DNA of 64,000 nt from an uncultured Clostridia bacterium (GTDB lineage: Bacteria > Bacillota > Clostridia > TANB77 > CAG-508). A program made the position numbers and the translations under genes. Where the stretch lies: NCBI GenBank assembly GCA_944386325.1, contig CALXAP010000005.1, positions 32,377 through 96,376 on the forward strand. The letters are read 5' to 3'. Shown one piece after another: positions 12,958 to 56,884 of the stretch (position 1 is its first letter; each line of letters starts with the position of its first letter). Below the pieces are notes generated by a model. The model saw only the letters and a list, made by a program, of their open reading frames with translations. It did not search any database and had not been told where the DNA came from.

Positions 12958-13015
12958 GAATAGAGCTTAATATTTAAAAATAGAAATAATGATAAATTAT
13001 TTCTATTTTTAAGTA

Positions 13016-13044
13016 TTGACATTATAGTAGATTAGGAATAGAAT
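13016..13044 (+). promoter_or_regulatory. Sigma-A-type promoter, TTGACA-17-TAGAAT.
   Basis: Consensus -35 hexamer, 17 bp spacer and TAGAAT -10, about 30 bp upstream of the fba RBS. Confidence 0.45.
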
Positions 13045-16417: not shown

Positions 16418-16446
16418 TTGTAGGGGCGAACATTGTTCGCCCGCAC
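16418..16446. repeat. GC-rich REP-like palindrome GGGCGAACA-T-TGTTCGCCC, family copy 1 of 5.
   Basis: Perfect 9 bp inverted repeat in about 25% GC context. On the minus strand it is followed by a T-run 3' of uvrB. Confidence 0.7.
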
Positions 16447-16510
16447 TACATAGGCATTTCTCAAAAAATTGAACATATAAATTTTTCTCTGTAAAAAATA
16501 TATATAATAA

Positions 16511-18827: not shown

Positions 18828-19499
18828 GTGAATTATTATAATTTAAAAATAGTTGCATTATTAAAACAAGATTTAGATAATTTTAGTGCTTATGAAAAAA
18901 TATCTAATTTAATATCTTTATCAATGTTAAAAGACAATAACTTAAAGCAGATACATGAGCAAAATACATATAAAAACTATGTGTTTTGTAATTTATATCC
19001 AATTGAAAAAGATTCAATATATAAAAAGAATAACATTTATACTTTTGATTTAAGAGGTATAGAAATAGAAAAAATATTAAAGTTAAAACAAGTTATGAAT
19101 AATGCAGAAAATGATTATTTAAAAGTAATTCAAATTATTTTTCAAACAAATCAGCAAAGAGAAATTAAGAAATTAATTACTTTAACTCCTACTATTATAA
19201 CTACAGAAAAAGGAGATTATGATATAAAAGATAATTTAGAATTTGTTAAGCAAAGAATACTTGCAAACACGCAAAAAAAATATAAGAATATCTTTAAAGA
19301 TAATGTAAATATTGATTTTATAAAAGATATAAAGAAAACTAATGTTAAACCAATAAAAATACCTTATAAAAATATAAATATACTTGGAAATAAGTTTGAA
19401 TTATTTATAAATGAAGATAAAATGTCACAAGATTTAGCATTTCTTATATTATCAATTGGATGTCTAGAAAAAAATGCAATAGGTTTTCGGATTTTGTAA
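18828..19499 (+). CDS. cas6: CRISPR endoribonuclease Cas6, type I-B.
   Basis: First gene of the cas operon. Size and position are typical of I-B Cas6. GTG start. Confidence 0.6.
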   Translation: MNYYNLKIVALLKQDLDNFSAYEKISNLISLSMLKDNNLKQIHEQNTYKNYVFCNLYPIEKDSIYKKNNIYTFDLRGIEIEKILKLKQVMNNAENDYLKVIQIIFQTNQQREIKKLITLTPTIITTEKGDYDIKDNLEFVKQRILANTQKKYKNIFKDNVNIDFIKDIKKTNVKPIKIPYKNINILGNKFELFINEDKMSQDLAFLILSIGCLEKNAIGFRIL

Positions 19500-19520
19500 A
19501 GCAAGGTAGGAGGTGAGAAA

Positions 19521-22239
<2,719 letters not shown>

Positions 22240-22253
22240 AAAGAGAGAAAAAA

Positions 22254-23024
22254 ATGGAAACTATAAAATTTGAATTAAAATCAAATATGGCTATTATTAA
22301 AAAGCCTGATAGTAATGAAACATATTATACATATAATTTTCCTCATAAAATTATGCTTTTAGGCTTATTAGGTGCTATTATTGGGTTAAATGGATATAAT
22401 TATTATTCTTTTCAAAAATGTATAGGAAACAAAGTAAAAGAAATTCCTGAGTTTTATGAAAAATTAAAAAATTTAAAAATTGCTATTGTTCCAAAGATTG
22501 GTAAGGATAATTTTTCAAGGAAAATTCAGAGTTTTAACAATTCAGTAGGATATGCATCTAAGGAACAAGGGAATAATCTTATTGTAAAAGAGCAGTGGTT
22601 AGAAAAACCAAGATGGATAATATACATATTAGAAAATGATAGTGAAGAATATAGAAAAATAAAAGAATATCTTATAAATAAGAAATGCGAATATATTCCA
22701 TATATAGGAAAAAATGATCACTTTGCGGATATATCAAATGTAAAAGTAGAGAATGTGTCTAATATAAAAGAAAAAATTTCAGTAATAAATAGTATTTTTG
22801 AAGAGAAAATTGCAGAACTAAAAGATAATTTATTTGATGAAATATTAGGATTTGATAATAGGGAAAAAAAGGAATATTTATATAAGGAATTATTGCCAAT
22901 AGAATTAAATGAGAAAATAGGATATAGTAAGTTTTCTAATTTTATGTTTACAAACCAAGAATTAGATGTTAAAGAAAATATAAATATTTATAGAGTTCAG
23001 AATGAAAATATATATTATTTTTAA
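22254..23024 (+). CDS. cas5: Cas5, type I-B.
   Basis: 256 aa protein following cas7. N-terminal beta-hairpin-like sequence typical of Cas5. Confidence 0.6.
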   Translation: METIKFELKSNMAIIKKPDSNETYYTYNFPHKIMLLGLLGAIIGLNGYNYYSFQKCIGNKVKEIPEFYEKLKNLKIAIVPKIGKDNFSRKIQSFNNSVGYASKEQGNNLIVKEQWLEKPRWIIYILENDSEEYRKIKEYLINKKCEYIPYIGKNDHFADISNVKVENVSNIKEKISVINSIFEEKIAELKDNLFDEILGFDNREKKEYLYKELLPIELNEKIGYSKFSNFMFTNQELDVKENINIYRVQNENIYYF

Positions 23025-23056
23025 CATTATGAAGAAAGGAAAGTAATAATATTTAT

Positions 23057-25465
23057 ATGAATAATGAATATATAGAAAAGTTATTAAAAAATTTAAAACA
23101 TAAATATTATGCACATACAAAAGATAATGGAGAATGTGAATTATTAATTTCACATTTAGATTTAACTTATAAATATTATAAAAAAATGGAGAAAGATAAA
23201 GATTTAGATTATATAATCAAGAATATTATTGAAAAAACATTTAATGTTAATGGTGTAATTACAGAAGAAATATATGAATTATTCAAGCAGGCTATTTATT
23301 ATCATGATATAGGAAAAATAAATCCACTATTTCAAAAAAATAAAATGAATAATGATTTAAATATAAAAGTTGATAATGCTGATGATACTCATGCAGCATT
23401 ATCAGCTAGAATATATATAGATTCAATAATAAATGAAATAAAAGTTAATAGCAAAAGAAATCAATATGAAAATATAATTATCTTATATTGTGGCTACTAT
23501 TTTGGATATATTATTTCAAGGCACCATACAAAATTAGAAGCATTAAGCAATTTATTGGATTCTATAAAAGATAAGAAAATACCAGAAATACCAGAACCGT
23601 TGATAAATATATATGAAAAACAATTGAATATGGATAGTTTAAATAAAATATTAGAAAGACTGAAAGTTAATGCTTTAGAAATGTATATATTATGCAAAGT
23701 TCTATATTCATGTATAATATCAGCAGATTTTTATGCTACTTATGATTATATGACAGGAAAAGAAGTAAATTTTAAAATTGATAAGAAAAATGATTTATTT
23801 AAGGAATATGAGGAATCAGAACTTTTTGAAATAATAAAAAAATATGAGAGAAGAGAAATAAAATTAGAAGGAATAAATAAATTAAGAAGTGATATGTTTT
23901 TAGAAGCGGAAAGTACATTAAAGAAAAATTTAGATAAAAATATATTTTATTTAGAAGCTCCCACTGGAGCTGGAAAGACAAATATGGCAATTAATTTAGC
24001 GAAAATATTATATGAAAATATAGAAAATATCAATTCTATACATTATATATTTCCGTTCAATAATATTATAGAACAAACTGATAAAACATTTAGTGAATAT
24101 TTTAGTAAATATGAAGATTATGTAGTTATTAATTCTATTTCTGCAATGGCAATAGATGAAAATGAAAAATTAGATTATGAAATGATTTATATGAGGAATA
24201 TTTTCAATCAATATCCAATTTTAATAACATCTCATATTAATTTATTTAATACTTTTTTTGGAACAGGTAAAGAAAAAAATTATAGTTTGTATAATTATGT
24301 TAATAGTATTGTTATATTAGATGAAATTCAGTCTTACTCCAATAATATTTGGTATGAAATGATAGAGATGTTTGATAAATATGCAAAATTATTAAATATA
24401 AAGTTTATTATAATGTCTGCTACCTTACCAAGACTTGACAAATTACTGAATAAAAATATATCAAGTTTTTGTCAATTAATTTGTAATACTAAAAAATATT
24501 ATGAAAATAAAATTTTTGGAAGAAGAGTTATATTAAATTATGAATTATTAGATAAAAAAATTAATATTGATCTATTAATTGACGAAATATTAAAACATAA
24601 AAATAGAAAAGTTTTAATAGAACTAATAAAAAAAGATAGTGCTGAAAAATTATATGAAAAACTAAAAGATGAGTGTAGAAATACATATATTATGACAGGA
24701 GATGATAATAAGTATTCAAGACAAAAAATAATAGAAAAAGCAAAGCAGTGTAAAGAAATGATTTTAGTAGCAACTCAAACCATTGAAGCAGGAGTTGATA
24801 TAGATATGGATGTAGGATTTAAAGATATATCATTTCTTGATAGTGAAGAACAATTCATTGGTAGGATAAATAGGTCAAATAAAAAAGAGAATTGTTTAGC
24901 ATATTTTTTTAATTTAGATGATGCAAATATTATTTATAAAAAAGATAAAAGATTAGAATATAATTTAAATAAAAATGAAAGTAGAAAATGGCTAGAAAAT
25001 AAAAGATTTGATTTGTTTTATGATAAAATTTTAGAAAGAATAAAAGAAGAAAGTTCAAAATATACTAATGAAAATATTGAAGAGTTTAGAAAATATTGTA
25101 AGATTATTAATTATAAGAAAATCGAAGAAAAAATGCAATTAATAAAAACCAATTCAATAGATATTTTTATTAATTACACAATTAAAATAGATGGACAAGA
25201 AATTAATGGTAAAGATGTTTTTAGAAAATATATAGAAATATACAACAATAAAAATATTTCATATTCAGAAAGAAAAGTAAAGTTATCGCAAATAGCTGAA
25301 AATTTAAATTTATTTGTATACTCTTTACCAATAAACAGTATGCGTCTAATAGAAGGTGAAAAGATATGTGGAATGTTTTATATTGAAGAAGGAACAAAAT
25401 ATATAAAAGATGGAAGATTTAACAGAGGAAAGTATATAGAAGAAGGAGAAGGACTATTTTTATGA
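23057..25465 (+). CDS. cas3: Cas3 HD nuclease plus DEAD/DEAH helicase.
   Basis: HD-domain motifs near the N-terminus (H...HD.GK), Walker A APTGAGKT, and DEAH-like VILDEIQ. Confidence 0.85.
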   Translation: MNNEYIEKLLKNLKHKYYAHTKDNGECELLISHLDLTYKYYKKMEKDKDLDYIIKNIIEKTFNVNGVITEEIYELFKQAIYYHDIGKINPLFQKNKMNNDLNIKVDNADDTHAALSARIYIDSIINEIKVNSKRNQYENIIILYCGYYFGYIISRHHTKLEALSNLLDSIKDKKIPEIPEPLINIYEKQLNMDSLNKILERLKVNALEMYILCKVLYSCIISADFYATYDYMTGKEVNFKIDKKNDLFKEYEESELFEIIKKYERREIKLEGINKLRSDMFLEAESTLKKNLDKNIFYLEAPTGAGKTNMAINLAKILYENIENINSIHYIFPFNNIIEQTDKTFSEYFSKYEDYVVINSISAMAIDENEKLDYEMIYMRNIFNQYPILITSHINLFNTFFGTGKEKNYSLYNYVNSIVILDEIQSYSNNIWYEMIEMFDKYAKLLNIKFIIMSATLPRLDKLLNKNISSFCQLICNTKKYYENKIFGRRVILNYELLDKKINIDLLIDEILKHKNRKVLIELIKKDSAEKLYEKLKDECRNTYIMTGDDNKYSRQKIIEKAKQCKEMILVATQTIEAGVDIDMDVGFKDISFLDSEEQFIGRINRSNKKENCLAYFFNLDDANIIYKKDKRLEYNLNKNESRKWLENKRFDLFYDKILERIKEESSKYTNENIEEFRKYCKIINYKKIEEKMQLIKTNSIDIFINYTIKIDGQEINGKDVFRKYIEIYNNKNISYSERKVKLSQIAENLNLFVYSLPINSMRLIEGEKICGMFYIEEGTKYIKDGRFNRGKYIEEGEGLFL

Positions 25466-25959
25466 AAATAACAGGGACAGTTATAAATTATTATTTCCAT
25501 TGTAAAAGACAGTGTTATCTATTTGCAAATAAAATTAATTTAGAAGATAATTCAGAAGATGTTAGAATTGGTAGAGTATTACATGAAATAAAATCTAAAG
25601 ATGGAAAAAATACAGAAATAAAATATGAAGATATGGTAGTAGATAAAGTAACATCAAAATATGTAGAAGAATATAAAAAAAGTGATTCAGATACAGAAGC
25701 TGCTAAAATGCAGTTATTGTTTTATTTAAAAAACTTAAGAGATAAGGGAATTTATAAAAAAGGAAGATTAATTTACAATGAGAAGAATAATAAAGAAAGT
25801 AAAAAATCAGAGATAGTAGAATTAAATGATAAAGATATAGAGAAATTAAATAATTGTATTAAAGAAATAGAAATATTAATAAATAGAAATACTGTGCCAG
25901 ATGTAGAAAAAGAAAATAAATGTAAAAAATGTGCATATTATGAATACTGTTATATATAA
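25462..25959 (+). CDS. cas4: Cas4 RecB-like nuclease.
   Basis: N-terminal Cys (YFHCKRQCYL) and a C-terminal CKKCAYYEYC 4Fe-4S cluster motif. Overlaps the cas3 stop codon. Confidence 0.8.
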   Translation: MKITGTVINYYFHCKRQCYLFANKINLEDNSEDVRIGRVLHEIKSKDGKNTEIKYEDMVVDKVTSKYVEEYKKSDSDTEAAKMQLLFYLKNLRDKGIYKKGRLIYNEKNNKESKKSEIVELNDKDIEKLNNCIKEIEILINRNTVPDVEKENKCKKCAYYEYCYI

Positions 25960-25982
25960 AATCAAAAGTTTGGGAGAAAAGA

Positions 25983-26984
25983 ATGAAATCAGAAACTAAA
26001 TATATATTTTCAAGAGGAGACTTGTCTAGACAAGATTTTAGCATTAAATATAAAAATGATAAGGGAAATTTTTATTTACCAATAGAGAAGATAAAAGAAT
26101 TATATTGTTTTAATGATATTACAATATCTACAAAATTGTTAGATATATTGTCAACAGCTGGTATTGTAGTACATTTTTTTAATTATTATGAAAATTATGT
26201 AGGAACATTTTACCCAAAAAAGTCATTAATTAGTGGAAGGTTGGTTGTAAAACAATCACTTAAGTTTGAAAATAACAGACTAATAATAGCAAAAGCAATA
26301 GTAAATGGAATTGCTAAAAATATAAGAAATGTTTTATACCATTATTATAGACATGGCATAAAAGAACTAAAAAGTTTTATAGATTTTTGTAATAAAGATG
26401 TAGAAAAATTATTAGATAAAACTAAAGATATAAAACAAATCTTATCAATTGAAGGGAAAATATGGTCAAACTTTTATTCATCTTTTAAATATTTTTTGCC
26501 AGAGGATTTTATAATAAATAAGAGAGTTAAAAGACCACCAGATAATCCAATGAATGCTATGATATCATTTGGAAATACATTATTATATACTAAAACAATT
26601 TCTCAAATATATAATACACATTTAGAACAATCAATTTCTTTTTTACATGAACCGAGCGAAGCAAGGTTTTCTTTAAGTTTAGATTTAAGTGAAGTATTTA
26701 AACCAATTATAGTTTTTAAGACAATATTTGATTTAGTAAATAATAAAAAAATAAAAGTCGAAAAACATTTTGAAGAAAAACTGAATTATTCATTATTAAA
26801 TGAAGAAGGAAAAAAGATTTTTATAGAAGCTTTTGAAAACAGGATTAATCAAACATTTGAACATCCAAAATTAAAAAGAAAAATTACATATAAGCAAGCA
26901 ATAAGATTAGATGGATATAAGCTTATAAAGTATATTATAGAAGATAAAGAATTTATTCCATTTGATTTGGAAAAAAAGGAGTAA
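25983..26984 (+). CDS. cas1: Cas1 integrase.
   Basis: 333 aa. Conserved Cas1 acidic residues and position immediately before cas2. Confidence 0.8.
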   Translation: MKSETKYIFSRGDLSRQDFSIKYKNDKGNFYLPIEKIKELYCFNDITISTKLLDILSTAGIVVHFFNYYENYVGTFYPKKSLISGRLVVKQSLKFENNRLIIAKAIVNGIAKNIRNVLYHYYRHGIKELKSFIDFCNKDVEKLLDKTKDIKQILSIEGKIWSNFYSSFKYFLPEDFIINKRVKRPPDNPMNAMISFGNTLLYTKTISQIYNTHLEQSISFLHEPSEARFSLSLDLSEVFKPIIVFKTIFDLVNNKKIKVEKHFEEKLNYSLLNEEGKKIFIEAFENRINQTFEHPKLKRKITYKQAIRLDGYKLIKYIIEDKEFIPFDLEKKE

Positions 26985-26985
26985 A

Positions 26986-27273
26986 ATGAATAAAAAAATA
27001 AATTATAATTATGTATTTTTGTTTTATGATATAGAAGAAAAAAGAGTAAATAAAGTTTTTAAAAAATGTAAAAAATATTTAAATCATTGGCAAAAATCTG
27101 TATTTAGAGGGGCATTAACAAATTCTCAGATAATGGAATTAGAAAATGAGTTGAAACTAATAATAAATAAAGAGAAAGATTTTATATCTATTATAAAAAT
27201 AATGGATTTTAAAACAATTGGAGAAACTACTTTGGGAAATAATAAGATAAATACAGAAGATATATTTCTATGA
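26986..27273 (+). CDS. cas2: Cas2.
   Basis: MNKKINYNYVFLFYDIEEKRVNKV is the typical Cas2 N-terminal beta-strand. About 95 aa. Confidence 0.8.
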   Translation: MNKKINYNYVFLFYDIEEKRVNKVFKKCKKYLNHWQKSVFRGALTNSQIMELENELKLIINKEKDFISIIKIMDFKTIGETTLGNNKINTEDIFL

Positions 27274-27411
27274 TTTTTTCCAGGTTATTAATTTTTTTGT
27301 TAATATATAAGGTTATAAAAAAAATGATTTATCTGGAAAAAAATAATAAAATAGTTAATATATGAATGAAATTTTATTATATATGAATGTAAAAACATTC
27401 ATTTTTCAATG
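27274..27411 (+). promoter_or_regulatory. CRISPR leader (AT-rich), cas2-proximal.
   Basis: 138 bp AT-rich region between cas2 and the first repeat. Degenerate repeats sit at the opposite end of the array. Confidence 0.6.
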
Positions 27412-30280
27412 GTTAAACTATAACATGAGATGTATTTAAATGAGACAATCACATTCGATTGTCTTTCTTTGTGGTATGTTAAACTATAACATGAGATGTA
27501 TTTAAATAGAGTATCCATGCACATCTGACATTTGTTATAGAAAGTTAAACTATAACATGAGATGTATTTAAATTGAGACCGATGAAAATGATAAGCGCCG
27601 TCTTTATGTTAAACTATAACATGAGATGTATTTAAATGCCATTTTTTTATCAGCTTCTTCTTTAATTTTCTTAGTTAAACTATAACATGAGATGTATTTA
27701 AATATTAAATGCTGAAGGATATGGATTAGGTGGTGCAACGTTAAACTATAACATGAGATGTATTTAAATAATTTTCGGTCATGCTTTTATTTATAATAGC
27801 ATTAAGTTAAACTATAACATGAGATGTATTTAAATTATTTTTCAGCTTTTTTTAAACCCCTACTACAAAAAGTTAAACTATAACATGAGATGTATTTAAA
27901 TCCGCGGAACTTATGTACAAAATACTAGATACTTTGGGTTAAACTATAACATGAGATGTATTTAAATATGCTTATGATACTTTTGAGACAATTAAGACTT
28001 AAAGTTAAACTATAACATGAGATGTATTTAAATATAACAATATTTTTGTTAGTATTTGGAACAGGTAGAGTTAAACTATAACATGAGATGTATTTAAATA
28101 GGTGTTATTTCTCCTCGTTGGGTTGATTTGTTTGAGTTAAACTATAACATGAGATGTATTTAAATCATTCTGTAGATATATATGTAAGATTTATAAGAGA
28201 TAGTTAAACTATAACATGAGATGTATTTAAATCTGCTCTTTTTCCTGATTTAGCTAATATATTTACTTGTTAAACTATAACATGAGATGTATTTAAATCC
28301 ATATTGAGAAGTAAAAGCATCCGAAAAAGAGTTATGTTAAACTATAACATGAGATGTATTTAAATTCTTCAGAAGCCTGAGAAGACAGAAAGTCATTTTG
28401 GTTAAACTATAACATGAGATGTATTTAAATTCGGCCTCATGAAAGGGCTTGAAGATTTGTATAAAAAGTTAAACTATAACATGAGATGTATTTAAATAAA
28501 ACATCCTTATTAACAAAACAAGTAACAATATAAGTTAAACTATAACATGAGATGTATTTAAATAATAATTTTGTAACAACAAAAAATATCGCCTGTATTG
28601 TTAAACTATAACATGAGATGTATTTAAATTACTACGTCAAACTCGTATATTTCAACAAGTAAATCGTTAAACTATAACATGAGATGTATTTAAATTAGTA
28701 GAAGTGATTATAATGATGTTAAAAATTTTGTGTTAAACTATAACATGAGATGTATTTAAATCCTACTATACCCCATAAGTTTGTTGCAGATAGCTCTGTT
28801 AAACTATAACATGAGATGTATTTAAATAAAACATACTCAACTACACGCCATTCATAATCTTTAGTTAAACTATAACATGAGATGTATTTAAATTTTTCAT
28901 GTGTAAGTATAAAAGTAATAATATCATCAAGTTAAACTATAACATGAGATGTATTTAAATGAAGAAGAAATTAGACGCATTAGTTTAAGTCGAACTAAGT
29001 TAAACTATAACATGAGATGTATTTAAATTTACTATAATTATAATTAAATATTATATCAGAATTTGTTAAACTATAACATGAGATGTATTTAAATCCGTAT
29101 TGAGCAGTCCAAACATCTGTAAAACTGTTGTGTTAAACTATAACATGAGATGTATTTAAATTATTTTTCAGCTTTCTTTAAGCCTCTAGAACAAAAATGT
29201 TAAACTATAACATGAGATGTATTTAAATCTATCATTAGCCTGAGAATTAAGAAAATCGTTTTGGTTAAACTATAACATGAGATGTATTTAAATAACATTT
29301 TAGAATTGTAATAACCATATTCATTTTTAGTTAAACTATAACATGAGATGTATTTAAATATATCAAATTTCTTGTAATATGTTTCAGTTTTTTGGGTTAA
29401 ACTATAACATGAGATGTATTTAAATTATAGATTGGCGGAACCTTTCGCAAGAGAGGGTTCCGTTAAACTATAACATGAGATGTATTTAAATAGGTGTTAT
29501 TTCTCCACGTTGGTCTGATTTATTTGAGTTAAACTATAACATGAGATGTATTTAAATAACATTTTAGAATTATAATATCCAAACTCATTTTTAGTTAAAC
29601 TATAACATGAGATGTATTTAAATCAATTCATATCACAGACAGTTTTATAATCGCAAAAGTTAAACTATAACATGAGATGTATTTAAATATATACAACTGG
29701 AGGAGGAGCGGGTTGCTTTGGAAGGTTAAACTATAACATGAGATGTATTTAAATGACTTAATAAATAAAAACCGAAAAGAACCAGTGGTAGGTTAAACTA
29801 TAACATGAGATGTATTTAAATTTAAAACTTGCGTATACGTACGCTTTATCACCAAGGTTAAACTATAACATGAGATGTATTTAAATTCTACATATGATAG
29901 AAGATACATAGATGAAAAAACAGTTAAACTATAACATGAGATGTATTTAAATTGTATATTCATTTAAACTAATCCATTCTTCCATTTTGTTAAACTATAA
30001 CATGAGATGTATTTAAATGAAACTCCATTTTCGCCACCTAAAAATGTATTAAGTTAAACTATAACATGAGATGTATTTAAATTTTACATTCTAGTATGTT
30101 TATATTAATACTTTAGATGTTAAACTATAACATAAGATGTATTTAAATATTAAATGCTATTGCAAGAATACTATATAAAGACAAGTTAAACTATAAGATG
30201 AGATGTATTTAAATTAAGAATTTGATAATTCTACAGGTAAAAAGAAAATTGTTAAACTATAACATGATGTATTAACACTA
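27412..30280 (+). CRISPR. CRISPR array: about 44 copies of the 30 bp repeat GTTAAACTATAACATGAGATGTATTTAAAT with 35-37 bp spacers.
   Basis: Perfect periodicity of about 66 bp. The three leader-distal repeats are degenerate (30123, 30185, 30251), fixing the leader at the cas2 side. Confidence 0.97.
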
Positions 30281-42828: not shown

Positions 42829-42862
42829 AAGAAACAGCATTAATCATTGATGCTGTTTCTTA
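42829..42862. terminator. Bidirectional hairpin terminator shared by convergent genes.
   Basis: GAAACAGCAT-9nt-ATGCTGTTTC between the deaminase (+) and the minus-strand membrane gene. Confidence 0.5.
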
Positions 42863-43322
42863 CGCTTGCAAAAGATTTATATCTTGATAAAATAAACCTA
42901 CTTATTGAACCTGCTACTATTAAATTTAAAAACATTGCAGCACAAAAGTTTCTAGGCCAAGTTGAAAAGAAATTATTTAATACATAAGCAATATTTCCAT
43001 TGCTTAATAGTCCACCTATAATTGTCATAATAATAGACATCATTGTTACAATAAAAAATGTATTGAATAATATATGTGCATTTTGGCTATCGTTACGACT
43101 TGTAAATTTAGCTATTAATTTACCATTTATGAAATGAACAATAGTATTTTCAATAATAAAAGCTATTACAAAAATCATAGGAAAAGCTTTTGAAGTAGCT
43201 AGTATAGAATTAAAATTAAATCCATTCATATTAATAGAAATGTTTAGTAAAGCCATTCCATAAGCCATAATAAAGCACATACAAATTCCATATAATAATC
43301 CTTCTTTTTTATTTGTTGGCAT
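42840..43322 (-). CDS. Integral membrane protein, unknown function.
   Basis: 160 aa with four predicted TM helices. RBS AGGAGG upstream on the minus strand. Confidence 0.4.
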   Translation of the reverse strand: MPTNKKEGLLYGICMCFIMAYGMALLNISINMNGFNFNSILATSKAFPMIFVIAFIIENTIVHFINGKLIAKFTSRNDSQNAHILFNTFFIVTMMSIIMTIIGGLLSNGNIAYVLNNFFSTWPRNFCAAMFLNLIVAGSISRFILSRYKSFASVRNSIND

Positions 43323-43489
43323 AAAAATTCCTCCTTTATATATAACTTAAAAAGCGCGTGAGCTTCAACTGGATTTACGCAATTAAAGCTACACGCCGAC
43401 TAAAGAATTATAACATATTAAAAAAATTTATGTAAGTAAAAAATTAAAAAATTTTTATTTGAGAAGTAACTATTTGTTACAATTCACGG

Positions 43490-43760
43490 CATACGATTTT
43501 GATATAATAATATTTCCTAAATTTTTTGGCTCAATACGATATTTAAGAATTTGTAAAATAATTTAATGAGCCTCTTTCATTCAGGCTCAAAATCAAAGAT
43601 TTTGCCCATGAACATTCCTCATTAAATTATATAACAAATTCTATAAACATCTCCAATCGCATTCAAAATTTATTCTATATTATTGTATCAAAATCTATTA
43701 ATTATAATATAGAAAAAATCAAAATAACGTCAGTAGGGGCGAACAGTGTTCGCCCGCACT
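43490..43760 (+). repeat. Roughly 265 bp direct repeat, copy 1, ending in REP-like palindrome copy 2 (43737-43755).
   Basis: About 92% identical to 44537-44795. Contains an internal hairpin GAGCCTCTTTCATTCAGGCTC. Confidence 0.85.
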
Positions 43761-43803
43761 ACAAAGTCATTTCTTAAAAAAAATAAGTATATTAATTAAT
43801 AAA

Positions 43804-44517
43804 TTGGAGAAAGAATATATGAGAAAATATGTAATTATAGATAAAAGAATGAGAGATAAAGAAAAAGAATATTTAAACAAAATCGGATATAATACTTTAG
43901 AAATAAATTATCACCCAGAAGTATATGAAGAGATTTCATCACATGTAGACATTTTTGTTTGTAAAATAAATAATAATATTTTTATAGCACCTAATATAAA
44001 AGAAATAGAATTACAAAATAAAACAATAGGAAAAAGTAAAGTATTAGAAAAGTATCCTTTAGATATAAAATATAATGTTGCAAGTATAGGAAACTATGTT
44101 ATACATAATTTTAAATATACAGATAAAACAATACTAGATTATGCAGAAAATAATGAATTAAAAAAGATTAATGTTAAACAAGGATACACAAAATGTAGTA
44201 TATCTGTAACAAGTAAAAATTCTTGTATAACTTCAGATAAATTAATAGCAAATCAATTATTAAAAAATGGTATTGATGTATTATATGTAAAAGAAAACAA
44301 TATAAACTTGCTGGATAAAGAAGGAAATCTAACACAAATGAGAGGTTTTATAGGAGGAGCTACAGGAATAATAGAGGATAAATTCATTTTATTCGGTGAT
44401 AGTAAGTATTTGGATAATAGAGAAAGAATATTAAAACATATAAATAAATATGGATTAGAATTAGTAGAATTTAAAGGTGAGTTAATACATGATTATGGGG
44501 GAATTGTATTAGTGTAA
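43804..44517 (+). CDS. Hypothetical protein (237 aa) bracketed by the 265 bp direct repeats.
   Basis: ORF with no recognisable catalytic motif. Gly-rich segment FIGGATGII near the C-terminus. Confidence 0.4.
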   Translation: MEKEYMRKYVIIDKRMRDKEKEYLNKIGYNTLEINYHPEVYEEISSHVDIFVCKINNNIFIAPNIKEIELQNKTIGKSKVLEKYPLDIKYNVASIGNYVIHNFKYTDKTILDYAENNELKKINVKQGYTKCSISVTSKNSCITSDKLIANQLLKNGIDVLYVKENNINLLDKEGNLTQMRGFIGGATGIIEDKFILFGDSKYLDNRERILKHINKYGLELVEFKGELIHDYGGIVLV

Positions 44518-44536
44518 ATGTTATAGTTAACGTCTG

Positions 44537-44795
44537 TAAGATTTTAATATAATAATATTTCATAAATTTTTCGGCTCAATACGATGTTTAAGAATTTGTA
44601 AAATAATTTAATGAGCCTCTTTCATTCAGGCTCAAAATCAAAGATTTTGCCCATGAACATTCCTCATTAAATTATATAACAAATTCTAAAAACATCTCCA
44701 ATCGCATTCAAAATTTATTCAACATTATTATATCAAAATCTTAAACCATAATATAAAAAAATCTAATGTAGGGGCGAACATTGTTCGCCCGCACA
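44537..44795 (+). repeat. Roughly 265 bp direct repeat, copy 2, ending in REP-like palindrome copy 3 (44772-44790).
   Basis: See copy 1. It lies immediately 3' of the bracketed gene. Confidence 0.85.
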
Positions 44796-44998
44796 ACATA
44801 GAAATTACTAAAAACTGAATATATAATTATAGTAGTGAATAGTAATAGAAAATGTAAAAAACATGTAAATTTAAGTAAGAAATATTTACAAAAATATCAA
44901 ATTATGATATATAAATACTATGTTATTGTTTTAGGATTATAGTAGGGAGCGGTCAGATACTGAATAATTAAATAATAAAAATAAGAAAGGGTTAATAT

Positions 44999-45184
44999 AT
45001 GGATAAAAAAGATATCATTATATATATACTAATGGTTCTACTAATTTTTACAATTGGAGTTATAGGTTATTTTATAGGAAAAGAAGTAGCTAAAGAAGAA
45101 TATAGAGACATCCCAATATATTCAGAAATTTATACTTTGGATAATGAATCTACATTAAATATGACAAATAATACAATAGAATAA
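44999..45184 (+). CDS. Small membrane protein (61 aa).
   Basis: One TM helix. Preceded by AAGGG RBS-like sequence. Followed by terminator-like AAAAAGAGGTTTTCTATTTTAGAATACCTCTTTTTT. Confidence 0.3.
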   Translation: MDKKDIIIYILMVLLIFTIGVIGYFIGKEVAKEEYRDIPIYSEIYTLDNESTLNMTNNTIE

Positions 45185-45291
45185 GTAAAAAAAGAGGTTT
45201 TCTATTTTAGAATACCTCTTTTTTAAGTAATATCGACAAATTAAAATATATTATGATATAATTCTAAAAAACGATATTAAGGAGGAAGTAT

Positions 45292-55453: not shown

Positions 55454-55580
55454 TGTAAAAAATTGCTATAAGAAATTAATAGAAAAAATGGGCTATACCC
55501 CATTTGGTGAGTTTTATTTCCGCCCTACCATTAGGCTTTATATTTTTTTATATAAAATAACAAAATTAGCAGCATAAATG

Positions 55581-55606
55581 TAGGGGCGAACATTGTTCGC
55601 CCGCGC
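55581..55606. repeat. REP-like GC-rich palindrome, copy 4 (GGGCGAACA-T-TGTTCGCCC).
   Basis: Identical core to copies 1 and 3. Lies between nrnA and truB. Confidence 0.7.
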
Positions 55607-55644
55607 TCTAGAAGAATTTCTTAAAATATCAAATATTAAGGAGG

Positions 55645-56520: not shown

Positions 56521-56661
56521 AATAGTGAATAATGAATAGTGAATGGTGAATAATGCAATTATGCCAATATAATACAAAACTATTAATATTAAATGTGGTG
56601 GCAAACACAATGTCATTAAGTTAAGAACATTTATAATATTATAAAATTAATATGTAAGATG

Positions 56662-56750
56662 TAGGGGCGAACAGTGTTCGCCAGCCCTTCGAAGAAATTT
56701 CTCATTATGTAATAATTTACGGCATACGAATTTGATATAATATTATATCA
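56662..56750. repeat. Degenerate REP-like palindrome (copy 5) followed by a partial copy of the 5' box of the 265 bp repeat (ACGGCATACGAATTTGATATAATATTAT).
   Basis: GGGCGAACA-G-TGTTCGCCa, then about 30 bp matching the start of the 43490 and 44537 repeats. Confidence 0.6.
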
Positions 56751-56884
56751 AATTCTTTATCTTGTTTTATAGCTATGAGTAAAATACTTAGTATAATCCG
56801 ATTTTAAAAAATTAATTATAAAAATATACACATATATAATTTTTTTTGATATAATGAAAAAAATAAATTTAAAGAGGTGAACAT

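Follow-up and report, generated by a model that had tools for sequence, protein, structure and literature searches.

Two hairpin repeats flanking a DUF6873 gene as probable members of a dispersed palindromic repeat family in uncultured gut Clostridia

REP/REPIN-like and foldback repeats have been described chiefly in Proteobacteria and in a few Firmicutes. Enterobacterial and pseudomonad REPs carry a GTAG foot beside their stem. REPs and REPINs are mobilised by RAYT, a Y1 HUH protein whose single-copy gene is flanked by REPs, and their replicative unit is an inverted doublet that folds into a hairpin. The elements Correia/NEMIS, ERIC/IRU, RUP, BOX and bcr1 of B. cereus are intergenic, non-coding and AT-rich, measure 100–500 bp and have inverted-repeat ends. 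Folded single-strand DNA sites are also known from integrons (attC), from the ends of IS200/IS605 and from the sso/dso origins of rolling-circle plasmids. Correia/NEMIS, ERIC/IRU, RUP, BOX and bcr1 have been treated as bacterial MITEs with long hairpin potential (PMC10969869, PMC2229807, PMC3184786), and MITEs as such have been defined by a length of 50–800 bp, no coding capacity, TIRs of at least 10–15 bp and TSDs of 2–10 bp (PMC11602168). In REPINs, compensatory changes across the hairpin are common (Bertels & Rainey 2011, PMC3116915).

Here, we describe two direct repeats, A and B, which bracket a DUF6873 gene in the genome of an uncultured Clostridia bacterium; the window is the whole 64,000-nt stretch of DNA that was analysed. 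The host lineage is one of uncultured gut Clostridia that form spores and are very AT-rich (24% GC). Our comparison suggests that A and B probably belong, independently of each other, to a family of non-coding foldback intergenic repeats that is dispersed at low copy number, that their bracketing of a gene is incidental and that they would be propagated by an enzyme acting in trans. We class this family as REPIN/MITE-like palindromic repeats.

Anatomy of the two repeat units

The direct repeats reported around a single gene in the preliminary description were recovered as two units of ~320 nt each (A 43476–43790, B 44520–44845), which are 92% identical over the 335 columns of a MAFFT alignment. 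Their limits differ from those first proposed: the 5′ start lies ~15–20 nt earlier and the 3′ ends fall beyond the GC palindrome. A repeat search of the window returned a 205-nt core with 96% identity (43492–43696 vs 44537–44741) and a second block with 77% identity (43715–43779 vs 44750–44814), a similarity that exceeds chance by far.

Each unit consists of two modules, a 205-nt imperfect hairpin and a separate GC-rich REP-like palindrome (Table 1). An internal hairpin and an AT-rich body had been distinguished earlier as separate parts, but the whole 205 nt form a single imperfect hairpin with GAGCCTCTTTCATTCAGGCTC at its tip. The fold has an RNA MFE of −74 kcal/mol (z −10; DNA z −7.5), and the repeat search found arms of 31–34 nt in A and B that are 84–88% complementary. 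Full-length relatives have the termini GTTACAATTCAC...GTGAATTGTAAC, the GTTACAATTCACGGCATAC box being partnered by a 3′ terminal GCTGTGAATTGTAAC, and at the loci L013, L014 and L022 the 5′ and 3′ ends are reverse complements of each other. The REP module has left the 3′ terminal arm of A and B displaced or degenerate; the remnant of this arm in copy B is probably GTGAATAGTAAT, as read against L014. The 5′ box of copy B begins 2 nt past the DUF6873 stop codon. Neither unit contains an ORF of at least 40 aa, and a candidate minus-strand leader peptide or small ORF of 10 codons (MGKIFDFEPE behind GAGG) was rejected because its frame and stop codon vary among variants.

The GC palindrome GGGGCGAACAnTGTTCGCCC occurs five times in the 64-kb window (16423, 43736, 44771, 55583 and 56664), always on the plus strand, with none expected in shuffles, and in all five modules GTAG stands directly 5′ of a stem of 8–9 bp. 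The window thus holds a multi-copy, GC-rich palindrome with a tetranucleotide foot, as in REPs. It had been regarded as the 3′ part of the repeat unit. In the window species it is indeed joined to the hairpin in both A and B, but it is an independent module, which is solitary at 16423 and 55583 and precedes a stub copy at 56664. All five modules are singlets, with no inverted doublet; in the chicken-MAG and ‘Eubacteriales’ subfamilies, the hairpin has a GC-rich motif on either side, the two being inverted relative to each other. The stub itself, noted before as a third partial copy behind the fifth palindrome, is real (56719–56755). Its palindrome corresponds to the outer 14 nt of both arms, fused after deletion of the centre, and the orthologous locus in L013 has a full-length element.

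Table 1. Repeat modules and enclosed gene (window positions).
Feature	Position	Strand	Sequence or remark	Basis
REP-like module 1	16420–16470	+	solitary	
Copy A, 5′ terminal box	43476–43494	+	GTTACAATTCACGGCATAC	A/B alignment
Copy A, long imperfect hairpin	43495–43695	+		inverted-repeat search, folds, family covariation
Copy A, outer arms	43495–43525 and 43665–43695	+		
Copy A, 7×7 internal loop	43531–43537 facing 43652–43658	+	TCAATAC facing TCCAATC	
Copy A, inner arms	43546–43570 and 43618–43642	+		
Copy A, asymmetric tip (‘core’)	43568–43622	+	GAGCCTCTTTCATTCAGGCTC, variable hairpin AAAATCAAAGATTTT, then GCCCATGAACATTCCTCAT	
REP-like module 2	43733–43783	+	GTAG foot, stem GGGCGAAC/GTTCGCCC, tail CTACAAAGTCATTTCTTAAAAAA	
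DUF6873 gene, resident	43819–44517	+	232 aa	Pfam, homologues, repeat-free synteny in L046
Copy B, 5′ terminal box	44520–44539	+	GTTATAGTTAACGTCTGTAA	A/B alignment
Copy B, long imperfect hairpin	44540–44740	+	core at 44613–44667	inverted-repeat search
REP-like module 3	44768–44816	+		
Copy B, 3′ terminal arm, probable remnant	44834–44845	+	GTGAATAGTAAT	sequence reading vs GTGAATTGTAAC in L014
REP-like module 4	55580–55630	+	solitary, upstream of truB	
REP-like module 5	56661–56710	+	one mismatch, upstream of stub	
Stub copy	56719–56787	+	5′ box ACGGCATACGA, perfect palindrome GAATTTGATATAAT/ATTATATCAAATTC, 3′ extension	

Dispersal of the hairpin, pairing of its arms and the conserved tip

The hairpin family is multi-copy and interspecific. 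A unit unique to this locus would have refuted the preliminary description, but this is not the case: the exact 21-mer of the tip occurs at 24 loci, distributed over ~12 species-level MAGs from uncultured gut Clostridia. Chicken_20_mag_165 alone has at least nine, and several lie no more than 60 nt from a contig end. In the window's own species, too, short contigs end exactly within the repeats. An independent 19-mer from the other half of the tip yielded nine further full copies in metagenomes; the metagenome scan added one extra species only, together with three chance matches within coding sequence. Family units are ~230–470 nt long, adjoin housekeeping genes such as rpsL, murG, eno, fmt and metG and tend to cluster, with other loci also showing copies within 1–5 kb. 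If ~10 copies landed randomly, two in adjacent spacers would have a chance of only ~5%, which counts against the explanation that we favour. No match was found in viral contigs by an exact-pattern scan with both core halves, or in plasmids and phages by blastn in distant mode. At the gathering threshold, Rfam 15 matched only CRISPR repeats in the window and nothing in seven other family loci, and a full-text literature search with the core and REP sequences and with DUF6873 returned no papers.

The arms of the hairpin diverge among copies and yet remain paired. Across 55 pairs in 21 copies from five subfamilies, 95.7% of the cells are paired, compared to 40–47% when the partners are slid. Double changes affect 35 pairs and account for 217 cells, against 6 with one-sided changes, and arm changes go almost exclusively from one Watson-Crick pair to another. 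Mismatches over 26 copies comprise 142 G:T and 153 A:C and thus favour neither strand. The 217 to 6 cells, together with the near equality of G:T and A:C, indicate that pairing is maintained at the level of DNA rather than RNA.

These observations bear on the alternative that the elements encode a structured RNA in multiple copies, whether a part of mRNAs that acts in cis or an sRNA, and that the palindromic DNA is merely its gene. Such an RNA could be processed by RNase III or act as a stabiliser, or its CCUCU and UCCUC loops could mimic the anti-Shine-Dalgarno sequence. In line with this, unpaired nucleotides of the tip are kept across ~12 species, the flanking stems covary and the tip hairpin ranges from 15 to ~190 nt among copies, like the variable stems of functional RNAs. 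Moreover, where the neighbouring genes are co-directional, the tip points with them at 9 of 10 distinct loci, and the window copies all lie on the gene-sense, leading strand. However, stems in which double changes prevail to this extent and G:U is no commoner than A:C are atypical of selected RNA helices, of the ~22 distinct copies, eight are placed between convergent gene ends and four between divergent genes, and close relatives flip, half-delete or lose copies while the neighbours stay unchanged. At E ≤ 10 for the locus, the best Rfam match, TwoAYGGAY, reaches 24.9 bits against a gathering threshold of 43 and skips the core. The bias in orientation may be explained more simply by the antisense tip GAGGAAUGUUCAUG, which reads as a Shine-Dalgarno sequence plus start codon and would be harmful within an mRNA. 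Altogether, we regard a structured RNA as unlikely. The copies between convergent genes and the stems without an RNA-type wobble signature also speak against the earlier proposal of a leader module reused as the 5′ UTR of successive genes. A sigma-70-like scan for internal promoters gave 25 promoter-like sites where 18 ± 5 were expected, hence no enrichment, and no intrinsic terminator was predicted. A candidate minus-strand promoter (TGGAGA-18-TATAAT) was discarded, as other subfamilies do not conserve it. The sense orientation at 9 of 10 loci is also not what a purely neutral palindrome would predict.

The most conserved portion of the family is its centre, not its ends, which is unlike classical MITEs and REPINs and sits uneasily with a REPIN/MITE-like family. 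The asymmetric tip is near-identical in all copies found (24 genome and 9 metagenome loci), an invariance that arises partly by construction since tip sequences themselves were the search words. The apex comprises a 5×5 loop CCTCT/CATYC, a stem TTCAT/ATGAA, a 3×1 loop, a stem GGC/GCC and a TC bulge. It ends in a hairpin whose length is free and which houses further, nested palindromic modules; at L017, L030 and L025 a second such module lies within the apex. It is conceivable, if rather doubtful, that the function of the element centres on the apex, as a candidate recognition or cleavage site for a hairpin-specific enzyme or as a small functional RNA, and that the arms only present it. If so, this kind of repeat would be under selection on its centre instead of its ends, and a strand-specific activity linked to replication or transcription would account for the 9:1 sense orientation.

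The enclosed gene and the instability of the repeats

The ORF between the repeats is a real gene. Its likely start is the ATG at 43819 behind a GGAG site, which gives a protein of 232 aa and not 237 aa as described before. It matches the DUF6873 Pfam family over its full length (E 4.6e-59) and has ~2050 homologues in Clostridia. In a 76%-identical relative, L046, the synteny DUF2798 / DUF6873 / rubredoxin-GltS is preserved, the two spacers measure 223 and 64 nt, and both A and B are absent; more distant homologues occur in other contexts, without these repeats. Since the gene keeps the same synteny without repeats in L046, it is resident and older than the repeats at this site, rather than their cargo.

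Furthermore, A and B resemble another copy more than each other. Their identities to this copy, at the locus L014, are 98.0% and 97.6%, respectively, compared to 95.6% between the two, which argues that A and B are independent. The idea of a MITE-like composite, in which DUF6873 was cargo that the direct repeats had mobilised or duplicated, rested on the 96%-identical repeats around exactly one gene, and L021 shows a similar bracket (full copy + REP, murG + 109-aa ORF, half copy + REP). Nevertheless, the repeat-free synteny of L046, the wide distribution of DUF6873 without these flanks elsewhere, the separate affinities of A and B and the lack of a transposase largely refute it. The gene does not travel with the repeats: in L045 and L058, from two samples, ~190 nt of A are missing at the same junction and the gene is still in place beside the truncated copy. 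We therefore consider a mobilised cassette extremely improbable.

Alternatively, A and B could have been copied in situ by a local segmental duplication or a gene-conversion tract without any mobility. They are adjacent, share orientation and hairpin-plus-REP architecture, and the contrast between 96% identity in the hairpin and 77% in the linker and REP flanks is the pattern that gene conversion would give. The unit is, however, also found at unrelated loci and in other species, and the greater similarity of both copies to L014 forms a star-like pattern, which makes a purely local origin quite improbable.

Polymorphism among relatives, which had been expected of a mobile or unstable repeat, was observed: copies are gained, lost, partially or centrally deleted and flipped. 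In addition to the empty sites in L046 and the truncated A copies, L021 has a half copy deleted between two AGATTTTG repeats, L013 also carries a scrambled remnant, and a 470-nt element in L025 has as its window counterpart only a hairpin with 22-bp arms. Between L028 and L044, which represent one locus, the inner ~330 nt are inverted while the flanks are collinear (95% identity, 5.4 kb aligned), and a second flip can be deduced from the paralogues L040 and L041. Being dispersed in many genomes, polymorphic among relatives and non-coding, the unit fits its first description as a MITE- or REP-like repeat. Within the window species itself, A and B are both fixed in ~23 metagenomic contigs, which all keep the A-gene-B form without polymorphism; such fixation runs counter to the explanation by a mobile family.

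The flips raise the possibility of a programmed recombination substrate, through which DUF6873 would undergo on/off deletion or amplification, or which would switch its neighbours in the manner of an inverton. With their 205 nt, the direct repeats offer sufficient length for RecA-dependent deletion and, at 96% identity and 1045 bp apart, make the excision or amplification suggested previously physically possible; there is no evidence that it occurs, and a form with one repeat and no gene, proposed earlier as a check, was not encountered among 15 + 23 contigs. The single form and orientation of the bracket in many samples, the flipped copy without an invertase nearby and the lack of a convincing internal promoter all speak against a programmed switch, and ordinary recombination between arms of at least 75 nt already predicts flips. 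This reading is thus very improbable, and we see no evidence for mobility or phase variation of DUF6873.

Pfam searches of ~52 window genes (30 ORFs and 22 annotated genes of L001) revealed no transposase or recombinase, in agreement with the preliminary description, and no transposase, recombinase or invertase was found within 8 kb around the flipped copy. A tblastn search for Y1 (IS200/IS605-type) transposases over 475 kb, a weak test with approximate queries, returned only ClpB by chance, and a cognate autonomous IS with the same ends was found neither in the window nor in the 475 kb examined. Among 25 copies, one has a non-palindromic flanking duplication (L014, AGAAAATC); all remaining matches lay within the palindrome itself. 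Even the L014 duplication may be element sequence, as AGAAAATG also follows the 3′ end of B. Both the lack of a mobilising enzyme in the sequence searched and the rarity of target-site duplications count against the explanation that we favour.

We nonetheless consider it likely that A and B belong to a family of dispersed foldback repeats. The elements would propagate as non-autonomous DNA through an enzyme encoded elsewhere and acting in trans. The putative enzyme or a host factor would recognise the conserved asymmetric tip and not the ends, and the arms would serve only to extrude or present this tip in hairpin or cruciform shape. Their complementarity may be maintained in part by recombination or gene conversion from one arm to the other. 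The bracketing of a single gene would then be incidental, although the pair may occasionally delete DUF6873 by homologous recombination, a deletion not seen in our contigs. For annotation, the units account for the breaks that contigs show around DUF6873 and around other genes in this lineage's MAGs, and they should be masked as repeats instead of being treated as regulatory leaders or a gene cassette.

Comparison with known systems

Several systems share traits with the Clostridia family. TwoAYGGAY RNA (RF01731), its best Rfam match, is also a long hairpin from gut Clostridiales; the match is on the minus strand and covers only a generic AT-rich stem, leaving the core and the AYGGAY loops unmatched. 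Invertons are invertible DNA segments with inverted repeats at their borders, and one family member similarly occupies its locus in either orientation, as two metagenomes show (L028 and L044). However, the family has contiguous long arms instead of short sites, no nearby invertase and no demonstrated promoter, and A and B are monomorphic, with a single orientation throughout the window species. In their possible mode of action, the elements resemble attC, the IS200/IS605 ends and sso/dso origins, which likewise combine conserved unpaired bases in an otherwise sequence-free stem with orientation dependence, and in which stems covary since pairing alone matters. In contrast to these, no intI, Rep or TnpA gene was found here and the window contains no integrase. 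Moreover, the termini are GTTAC...GTAAC, the reverse order of RYYYAAC...GTTRRRY, and do not represent R''/R' boxes, and the elements are chromosomal and dispersed rather than arrayed.

With the bacterial MITEs, the family shares size, AT-richness, lack of coding capacity, terminal inverted repeats and intergenic location, as well as dispersal in several copies, sites that are filled in some relatives and empty in others, and breaks in short-read contigs. Its modular build is comparable to the A, B and C modules of BOX. It differs in having no consistent target-site duplication (1 of 25 copies) and no cognate IS found, in being palindromic over its full length with a strictly conserved asymmetric apex, and in nesting a second palindromic module in that apex.

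The likeness to REPs and REPINs (PMC3116915) lies in the following: the family is extragenic, non-coding and multi-copy, the window module is a short GC-rich palindrome whose GTAG foot adjoins the stem, two inverted GC-rich motifs make the whole unit of the chicken-MAG subfamily fold as a long hairpin, and compensatory changes across the hairpin are common. The differences are that REPINs conserve their ends, the REP 16-mers, around a free spacer of ~70 bp, whereas here the centre is conserved and the ends are subfamily-specific; that the unit is 3–6 times longer; that the five window modules are same-orientation singlets and not doublets; that a RAYT was not found in the 475 kb examined with approximate queries; and that the hosts are Clostridia instead of Proteobacteria. 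Overall, the repeats add a foldback/REP-like example from very AT-rich uncultured gut Clostridia to an already familiar kind of repeat, with a conserved centre between free ends and module-in-module nesting with flips as its unusual traits.

A long hairpin on either side of a DUF6873 gene

Our analysis confirmed the direct repeat of about 265 bp that the preliminary description had placed around a single gene. The two copies, A and B, share 205 nt with 96% identity and, in a repeat search of the window, a second block with 77% identity. Aligned with MAFFT over 335 columns, they are 92% identical, and their homology opens with the box GTTACAATTCACGGCATAC and peters out at the 3′ side. An internal hairpin and an AT-rich body had been described as distinct parts of each unit; both belong to one imperfect hairpin of 205 nt, with outer arms of 31-34 nt (84-88% complementary) and inner arms of 25-29 nt (90-92% complementary). 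Folded as RNA, this hairpin has an MFE of -74 kcal/mol (z = -10), and the DNA fold gives z = -7.5. Above its outer stem, copy A has an internal loop of 7x7 nt (TCAATAC against TCCAATC), then the stems AGAATTTGT/ACAAATTCT and TTTAATGAG/CTCATTAAA, and finally an asymmetric apex. This apex starts with a 5x5 loop (CCTCT/CATTC), a stem (TTCAT/ATGAA) and a 3x1 loop; further in, a bulge (TC) follows the GGC/GCC stem, and a small hairpin, AAAATC-AAA-GATTTT, forms the end.

The open reading frame between the repeats is indeed a gene, of which the product has 232 rather than 237 aa when read from the most likely start, ATG 43819, with a GGAG site upstream. The protein matches Pfam DUF6873 from end to end (E 4.6e-59). 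Its AlphaFold model is very confident (pLDDT 95.6) and predicts a pentein fold, a five-fold beta-beta-alpha-beta propeller. The best PDB matches of the model, which point to two candidate roles, are eIF6/Tif6 and the enzymes DDAH, amidinotransferase and agmatine deiminase (Foldseek E ~4e-5, TM ~0.5). With ~225 aa, eIF6/Tif6 is similar in size to the DUF6873 protein; eIF6 is not known from bacteria.

Each repeat had also been said to end in a REP-like palindrome. In both A and B the hairpin is indeed followed on its 3′ side by a GC palindrome, GGGGCGAACAnTGTTCGCCC, but this is a separate REP module of about 50 nt, made up of a GTAG foot, a stem of 8-9 bp and, as its tail, CTACAnAGnnATTTCTnAAAA. 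The window contains the palindrome five times, compared with none in 100 shuffles. In other species, the outermost arms of the elements are GC-rich GGGGACGG-type motifs, an inverted pair flanking the hairpin, which fill the position held by the GTAG-GGGCGAAC module in the window's species. This second REP-like motif family (for example TTGCCAAAAAGCCCCGTCCCCTTTGGCAA, core GGGGACGG) was seen at L010, L034, L035 and L039, in a chicken MAG and metagenome copies. A and B are the only long hairpins in the 64 kb window, and the partial third copy (the stub) is likewise present. The GC content of the window is 22-28%. Because its GC skew (~+0.3) is strongly positive along nearly the whole length, the plus strand is probably the leading strand; on it lie the hairpins of A and B, the stub and each of the five REP modules.

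Positions of features in the window and at compared loci
Feature	Position	Strand	Description
Short hairpin	12969-13017		22-bp arms, near-perfect, between convergent genes, one a fructose-bisphosphate aldolase gene
REP module	16423	+	Solitary
CRISPR-Cas locus	18828-30148		Type I-B-like
Cas7	21313-22239	+	
Cas3	23057-25465	+	
Cas1	25983-26984	+	
CRISPR array	27412-30148	-	42 repeats (Rfam CRISPR-DR3)
DUF2798 gene	42840-43322	-	
DUF2798 leader	43335-43400	-	Short leader upstream of gene
Promoter-like site of leader	43436-43407		
Copy A, homology with B	43476 to near 43790	+	
Copy A, 205 nt	43492-43696	+	
Copy A, second block	43715-43779	+	
DUF6873 gene	43819-44517		
Copy B, homology with A	44520 to near 44845	+	
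Copy B, 205 nt	44537-44741	+	
Copy B, second block	44750-44814	+	
Segment before rubredoxin-GltS gene	44999-45231		61-aa ORF, then 24-bp-arm hairpin (45181-45231)
REP module	55583	+	Solitary
REP module	56664	+	5′ of stub
Stub	56719-56755	+	Partial third copy
Flipped locus	L028:4650-5200; L044:4218-4768		metG / polysaccharide deacetylase gene
Close pair, related species	L021:3984-4242; L021:6160-6394		Full hairpin + REP, murG, 109-aa ORF, half hairpin + REP
Nested modules	L017:332-558; L030:3010-3236; L042; L025:2505-2728		Second palindromic module, inverted, inside apex hairpin

A dispersed family with complementary arms

The repeat is not unique to this locus. An exact-word scan with the 21-mer GAGCCTCTTTCATTCAGGCTC, using one genome per GTDB species, returned 24 loci in about 12 MAGs of gut origin (chicken and rabbit among others), whose labels read uncultured Clostridia, Eubacteriales or Bacillota. 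A single chicken MAG accounts for nine of these loci, several are no more than 60 nt from the end of a contig, and in the window's own species short contigs terminate within the repeats. GCCCATGAACATYCCTCAT, which forms the second half of the apex, is present at all 24 as well, though selection used GAGCCTCTTTCATTCAGGCTC only; scanning metagenome contigs with the 19-mer GCCCATGAACATYCCTCAT yielded nine additional full copies and three chance matches within genes. No Rfam family reached its gathering score for the element, viral contigs, phages and plasmids gave no match, and a literature search for its sequences returned no paper containing them.

Outside the apex, the arms are wholly different between subfamilies and complementarity is kept (for example ATTTAATGAG/CTCATTAAAT, TTCTGGATGAG/CTCATCCAGAA, AAAAAAATGAG/CTCATTTTTT and GGCTTTC.../...GAAAGCC). 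The length of the terminal hairpin varies between 15 nt and about 190 nt. In some members it encloses a second, inverted palindromic module; these nested modules share the 7x7 loop motif CGGCTCAATACG...CTCCAATCACATTC and have the variant tip TGAGCCTC-TCGCTGCAAGAATTCGCG-CTTCCTCA.

An alignment of 21 distinct copies, which represent five subfamilies, gave a consensus structure of 55 pairs, 35 of which changed on both sides. Paired cells amounted to 95.7%, compared with 40-47% when the 3′ partners were slid by 1-3 columns, and the covariation score was 0.48, whereas the slid controls did not exceed 0.13. Double-change cells numbered 217 and one-sided, wobble-type cells 6; the mismatches over 26 copies included G:T (142) and A:C (153) at similar frequency. 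Selected RNA helices normally have many G-U intermediates, and on a single strand only. Since wobble cells are few and G:T about equals A:C here, unlike in selected RNA helices, DNA-level pairing is favoured, and the alignment fits arm pairing that is maintained in the DNA. Selection acting on both strands for a hairpin or cruciform could keep it so, as could recombination or conversion between the arms. The earlier proposal of a module reused as a leader does not stand.

Comparison of sequences indicates that arm-to-arm recombination happens in the family, because one locus recovered from two metagenomes (L028 and L044) has its inner ~330 nt in opposite orientations, bounded by GC-rich inverted repeats of at least 75 nt. 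The flanks are collinear (the contigs are 95% identical over 5.4 kb of alignment), and no recombinase was found within 8 kb of the flipped element. Moreover, in two paralogous copies of the chicken MAG, L040 and L041, the asymmetric outer bulges have traded places with respect to the apex.

Gain, loss and pairing of copies

DUF6873 has about 2050 homologues. At the related locus L046, whose DUF6873 protein shares 76% identity with that of the window, the gene order is the same (flavin reductase, deaminase, DUF2798 on the minus strand, DUF6873, rubredoxin-GltS), with spacers of 223 nt and, between DUF6873 and GltS, 64 nt; hairpin, REP module and 61-aa ORF are absent there. This order without repeats indicates that DUF6873 predates the repeats at this site. 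Furthermore, identity between A and B is 95.6%, but each is closer to L014, a copy at another locus (98.0% for A and 97.6% for B). This pattern is star-like, as for independent copies of a master and not for local duplication. Both results contradict a composite that mobilised the gene, while the MITE-like reading as such stands.

By our estimate, two copies would fall into neighbouring spacers by chance in ~5% of cases if a genome holds ~10 copies. Close pairs recur at other loci (2.2 kb around murG at L021, where the copies have a 60-nt 5′ flank in common; 1.4 kb at L013; 4.6 kb at L031/L036), so local clustering seems characteristic of the family rather than peculiar to DUF6873. That the pair serves as a recombination substrate is possible but unsupported: in ~23 contigs of the window's species, from many samples, A and B are fixed as A-gene-B in a single orientation, and none has a single repeat without the gene.

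Relatives are polymorphic at this site. Besides L046 without repeats, two independent samples (L045 and L058, 95% protein identity) have a partial A from which ~190 nt are missing, with a junction common to both; what is left is the 5′ box, a degenerate REP and, of the 3′ arm, 18 nt. In the stub, the outermost 14 nt of one arm are joined to those of the other; it is a central deletion, because the orthologous L013 locus has a full element. A scrambled remnant also occurs at L013, and the half copy at L021 has a deletion between two AGATTTTG repeats. L025 has a 470-nt family member where the window has the short hairpin at 12969-13017, which could be a terminator or an element residue.

Two neighbouring features were observed as well. 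The whole segment before the rubredoxin-GltS gene, with the ORF for a predicted small membrane protein, is missing in L046. The DUF2798 leader is nearly identical in L046, the remainder of the spacer having diverged; it has a terminator-like hairpin (GCGUGUAGCUU...AAGCUCACGCGC) and then U5, directly ahead of the ribosome-binding site. It matched no Rfam family and may be an attenuator or small riboswitch.

Orientation and relation to known repeats

Between co-directional genes, the apex is in sense to the genes at nine of ten distinct loci, the exception being the flipped L028, and a neutral palindrome leaves this feature unexplained. Possibly the antisense form is counter-selected, as it would put GAGGAAUGUUCAUG, a Shine-Dalgarno sequence with start codon, inside mRNAs; alternatively, the bias could reflect a strand-specific activity at the apex.

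The element is a palindromic repeat that is non-coding, multi-copy, interspecific and unstable; its pairing is maintained at the level of DNA, and its asymmetric apex is conserved. We suggest that it may propagate in trans by an enzyme encoded elsewhere, for which the apex would be the recognised part and the arms would present it. The family would be of more than modest interest only if this apex turned out to be a recognition site, or an RNA, of a new type.

The closest known kinds are REP/REPIN elements and hairpin-forming bacterial MITEs such as Correia, ERIC, RUP, BOX and bcr1. Unlike in classical MITEs, target-site duplication is inconsistent (1 of 25 copies), and no cognate IS was found in the window or in the 475 kb of sequence examined. 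Unlike in both classical MITEs and classical REPINs, the conserved part is the centre and not the ends. For REP/REPIN elements, hairpin-forming doublets with compensatory changes have also been reported (PMC3116915). In contrast to classical REPINs, the REP modules of the window are singlets, and no RAYT was found in the same 475 kb, a weak test with approximate query sequences. The family is one of palindromic intergenic repeats with some variant features, which can be likened to REPINs and MITEs and failed strict membership in each.
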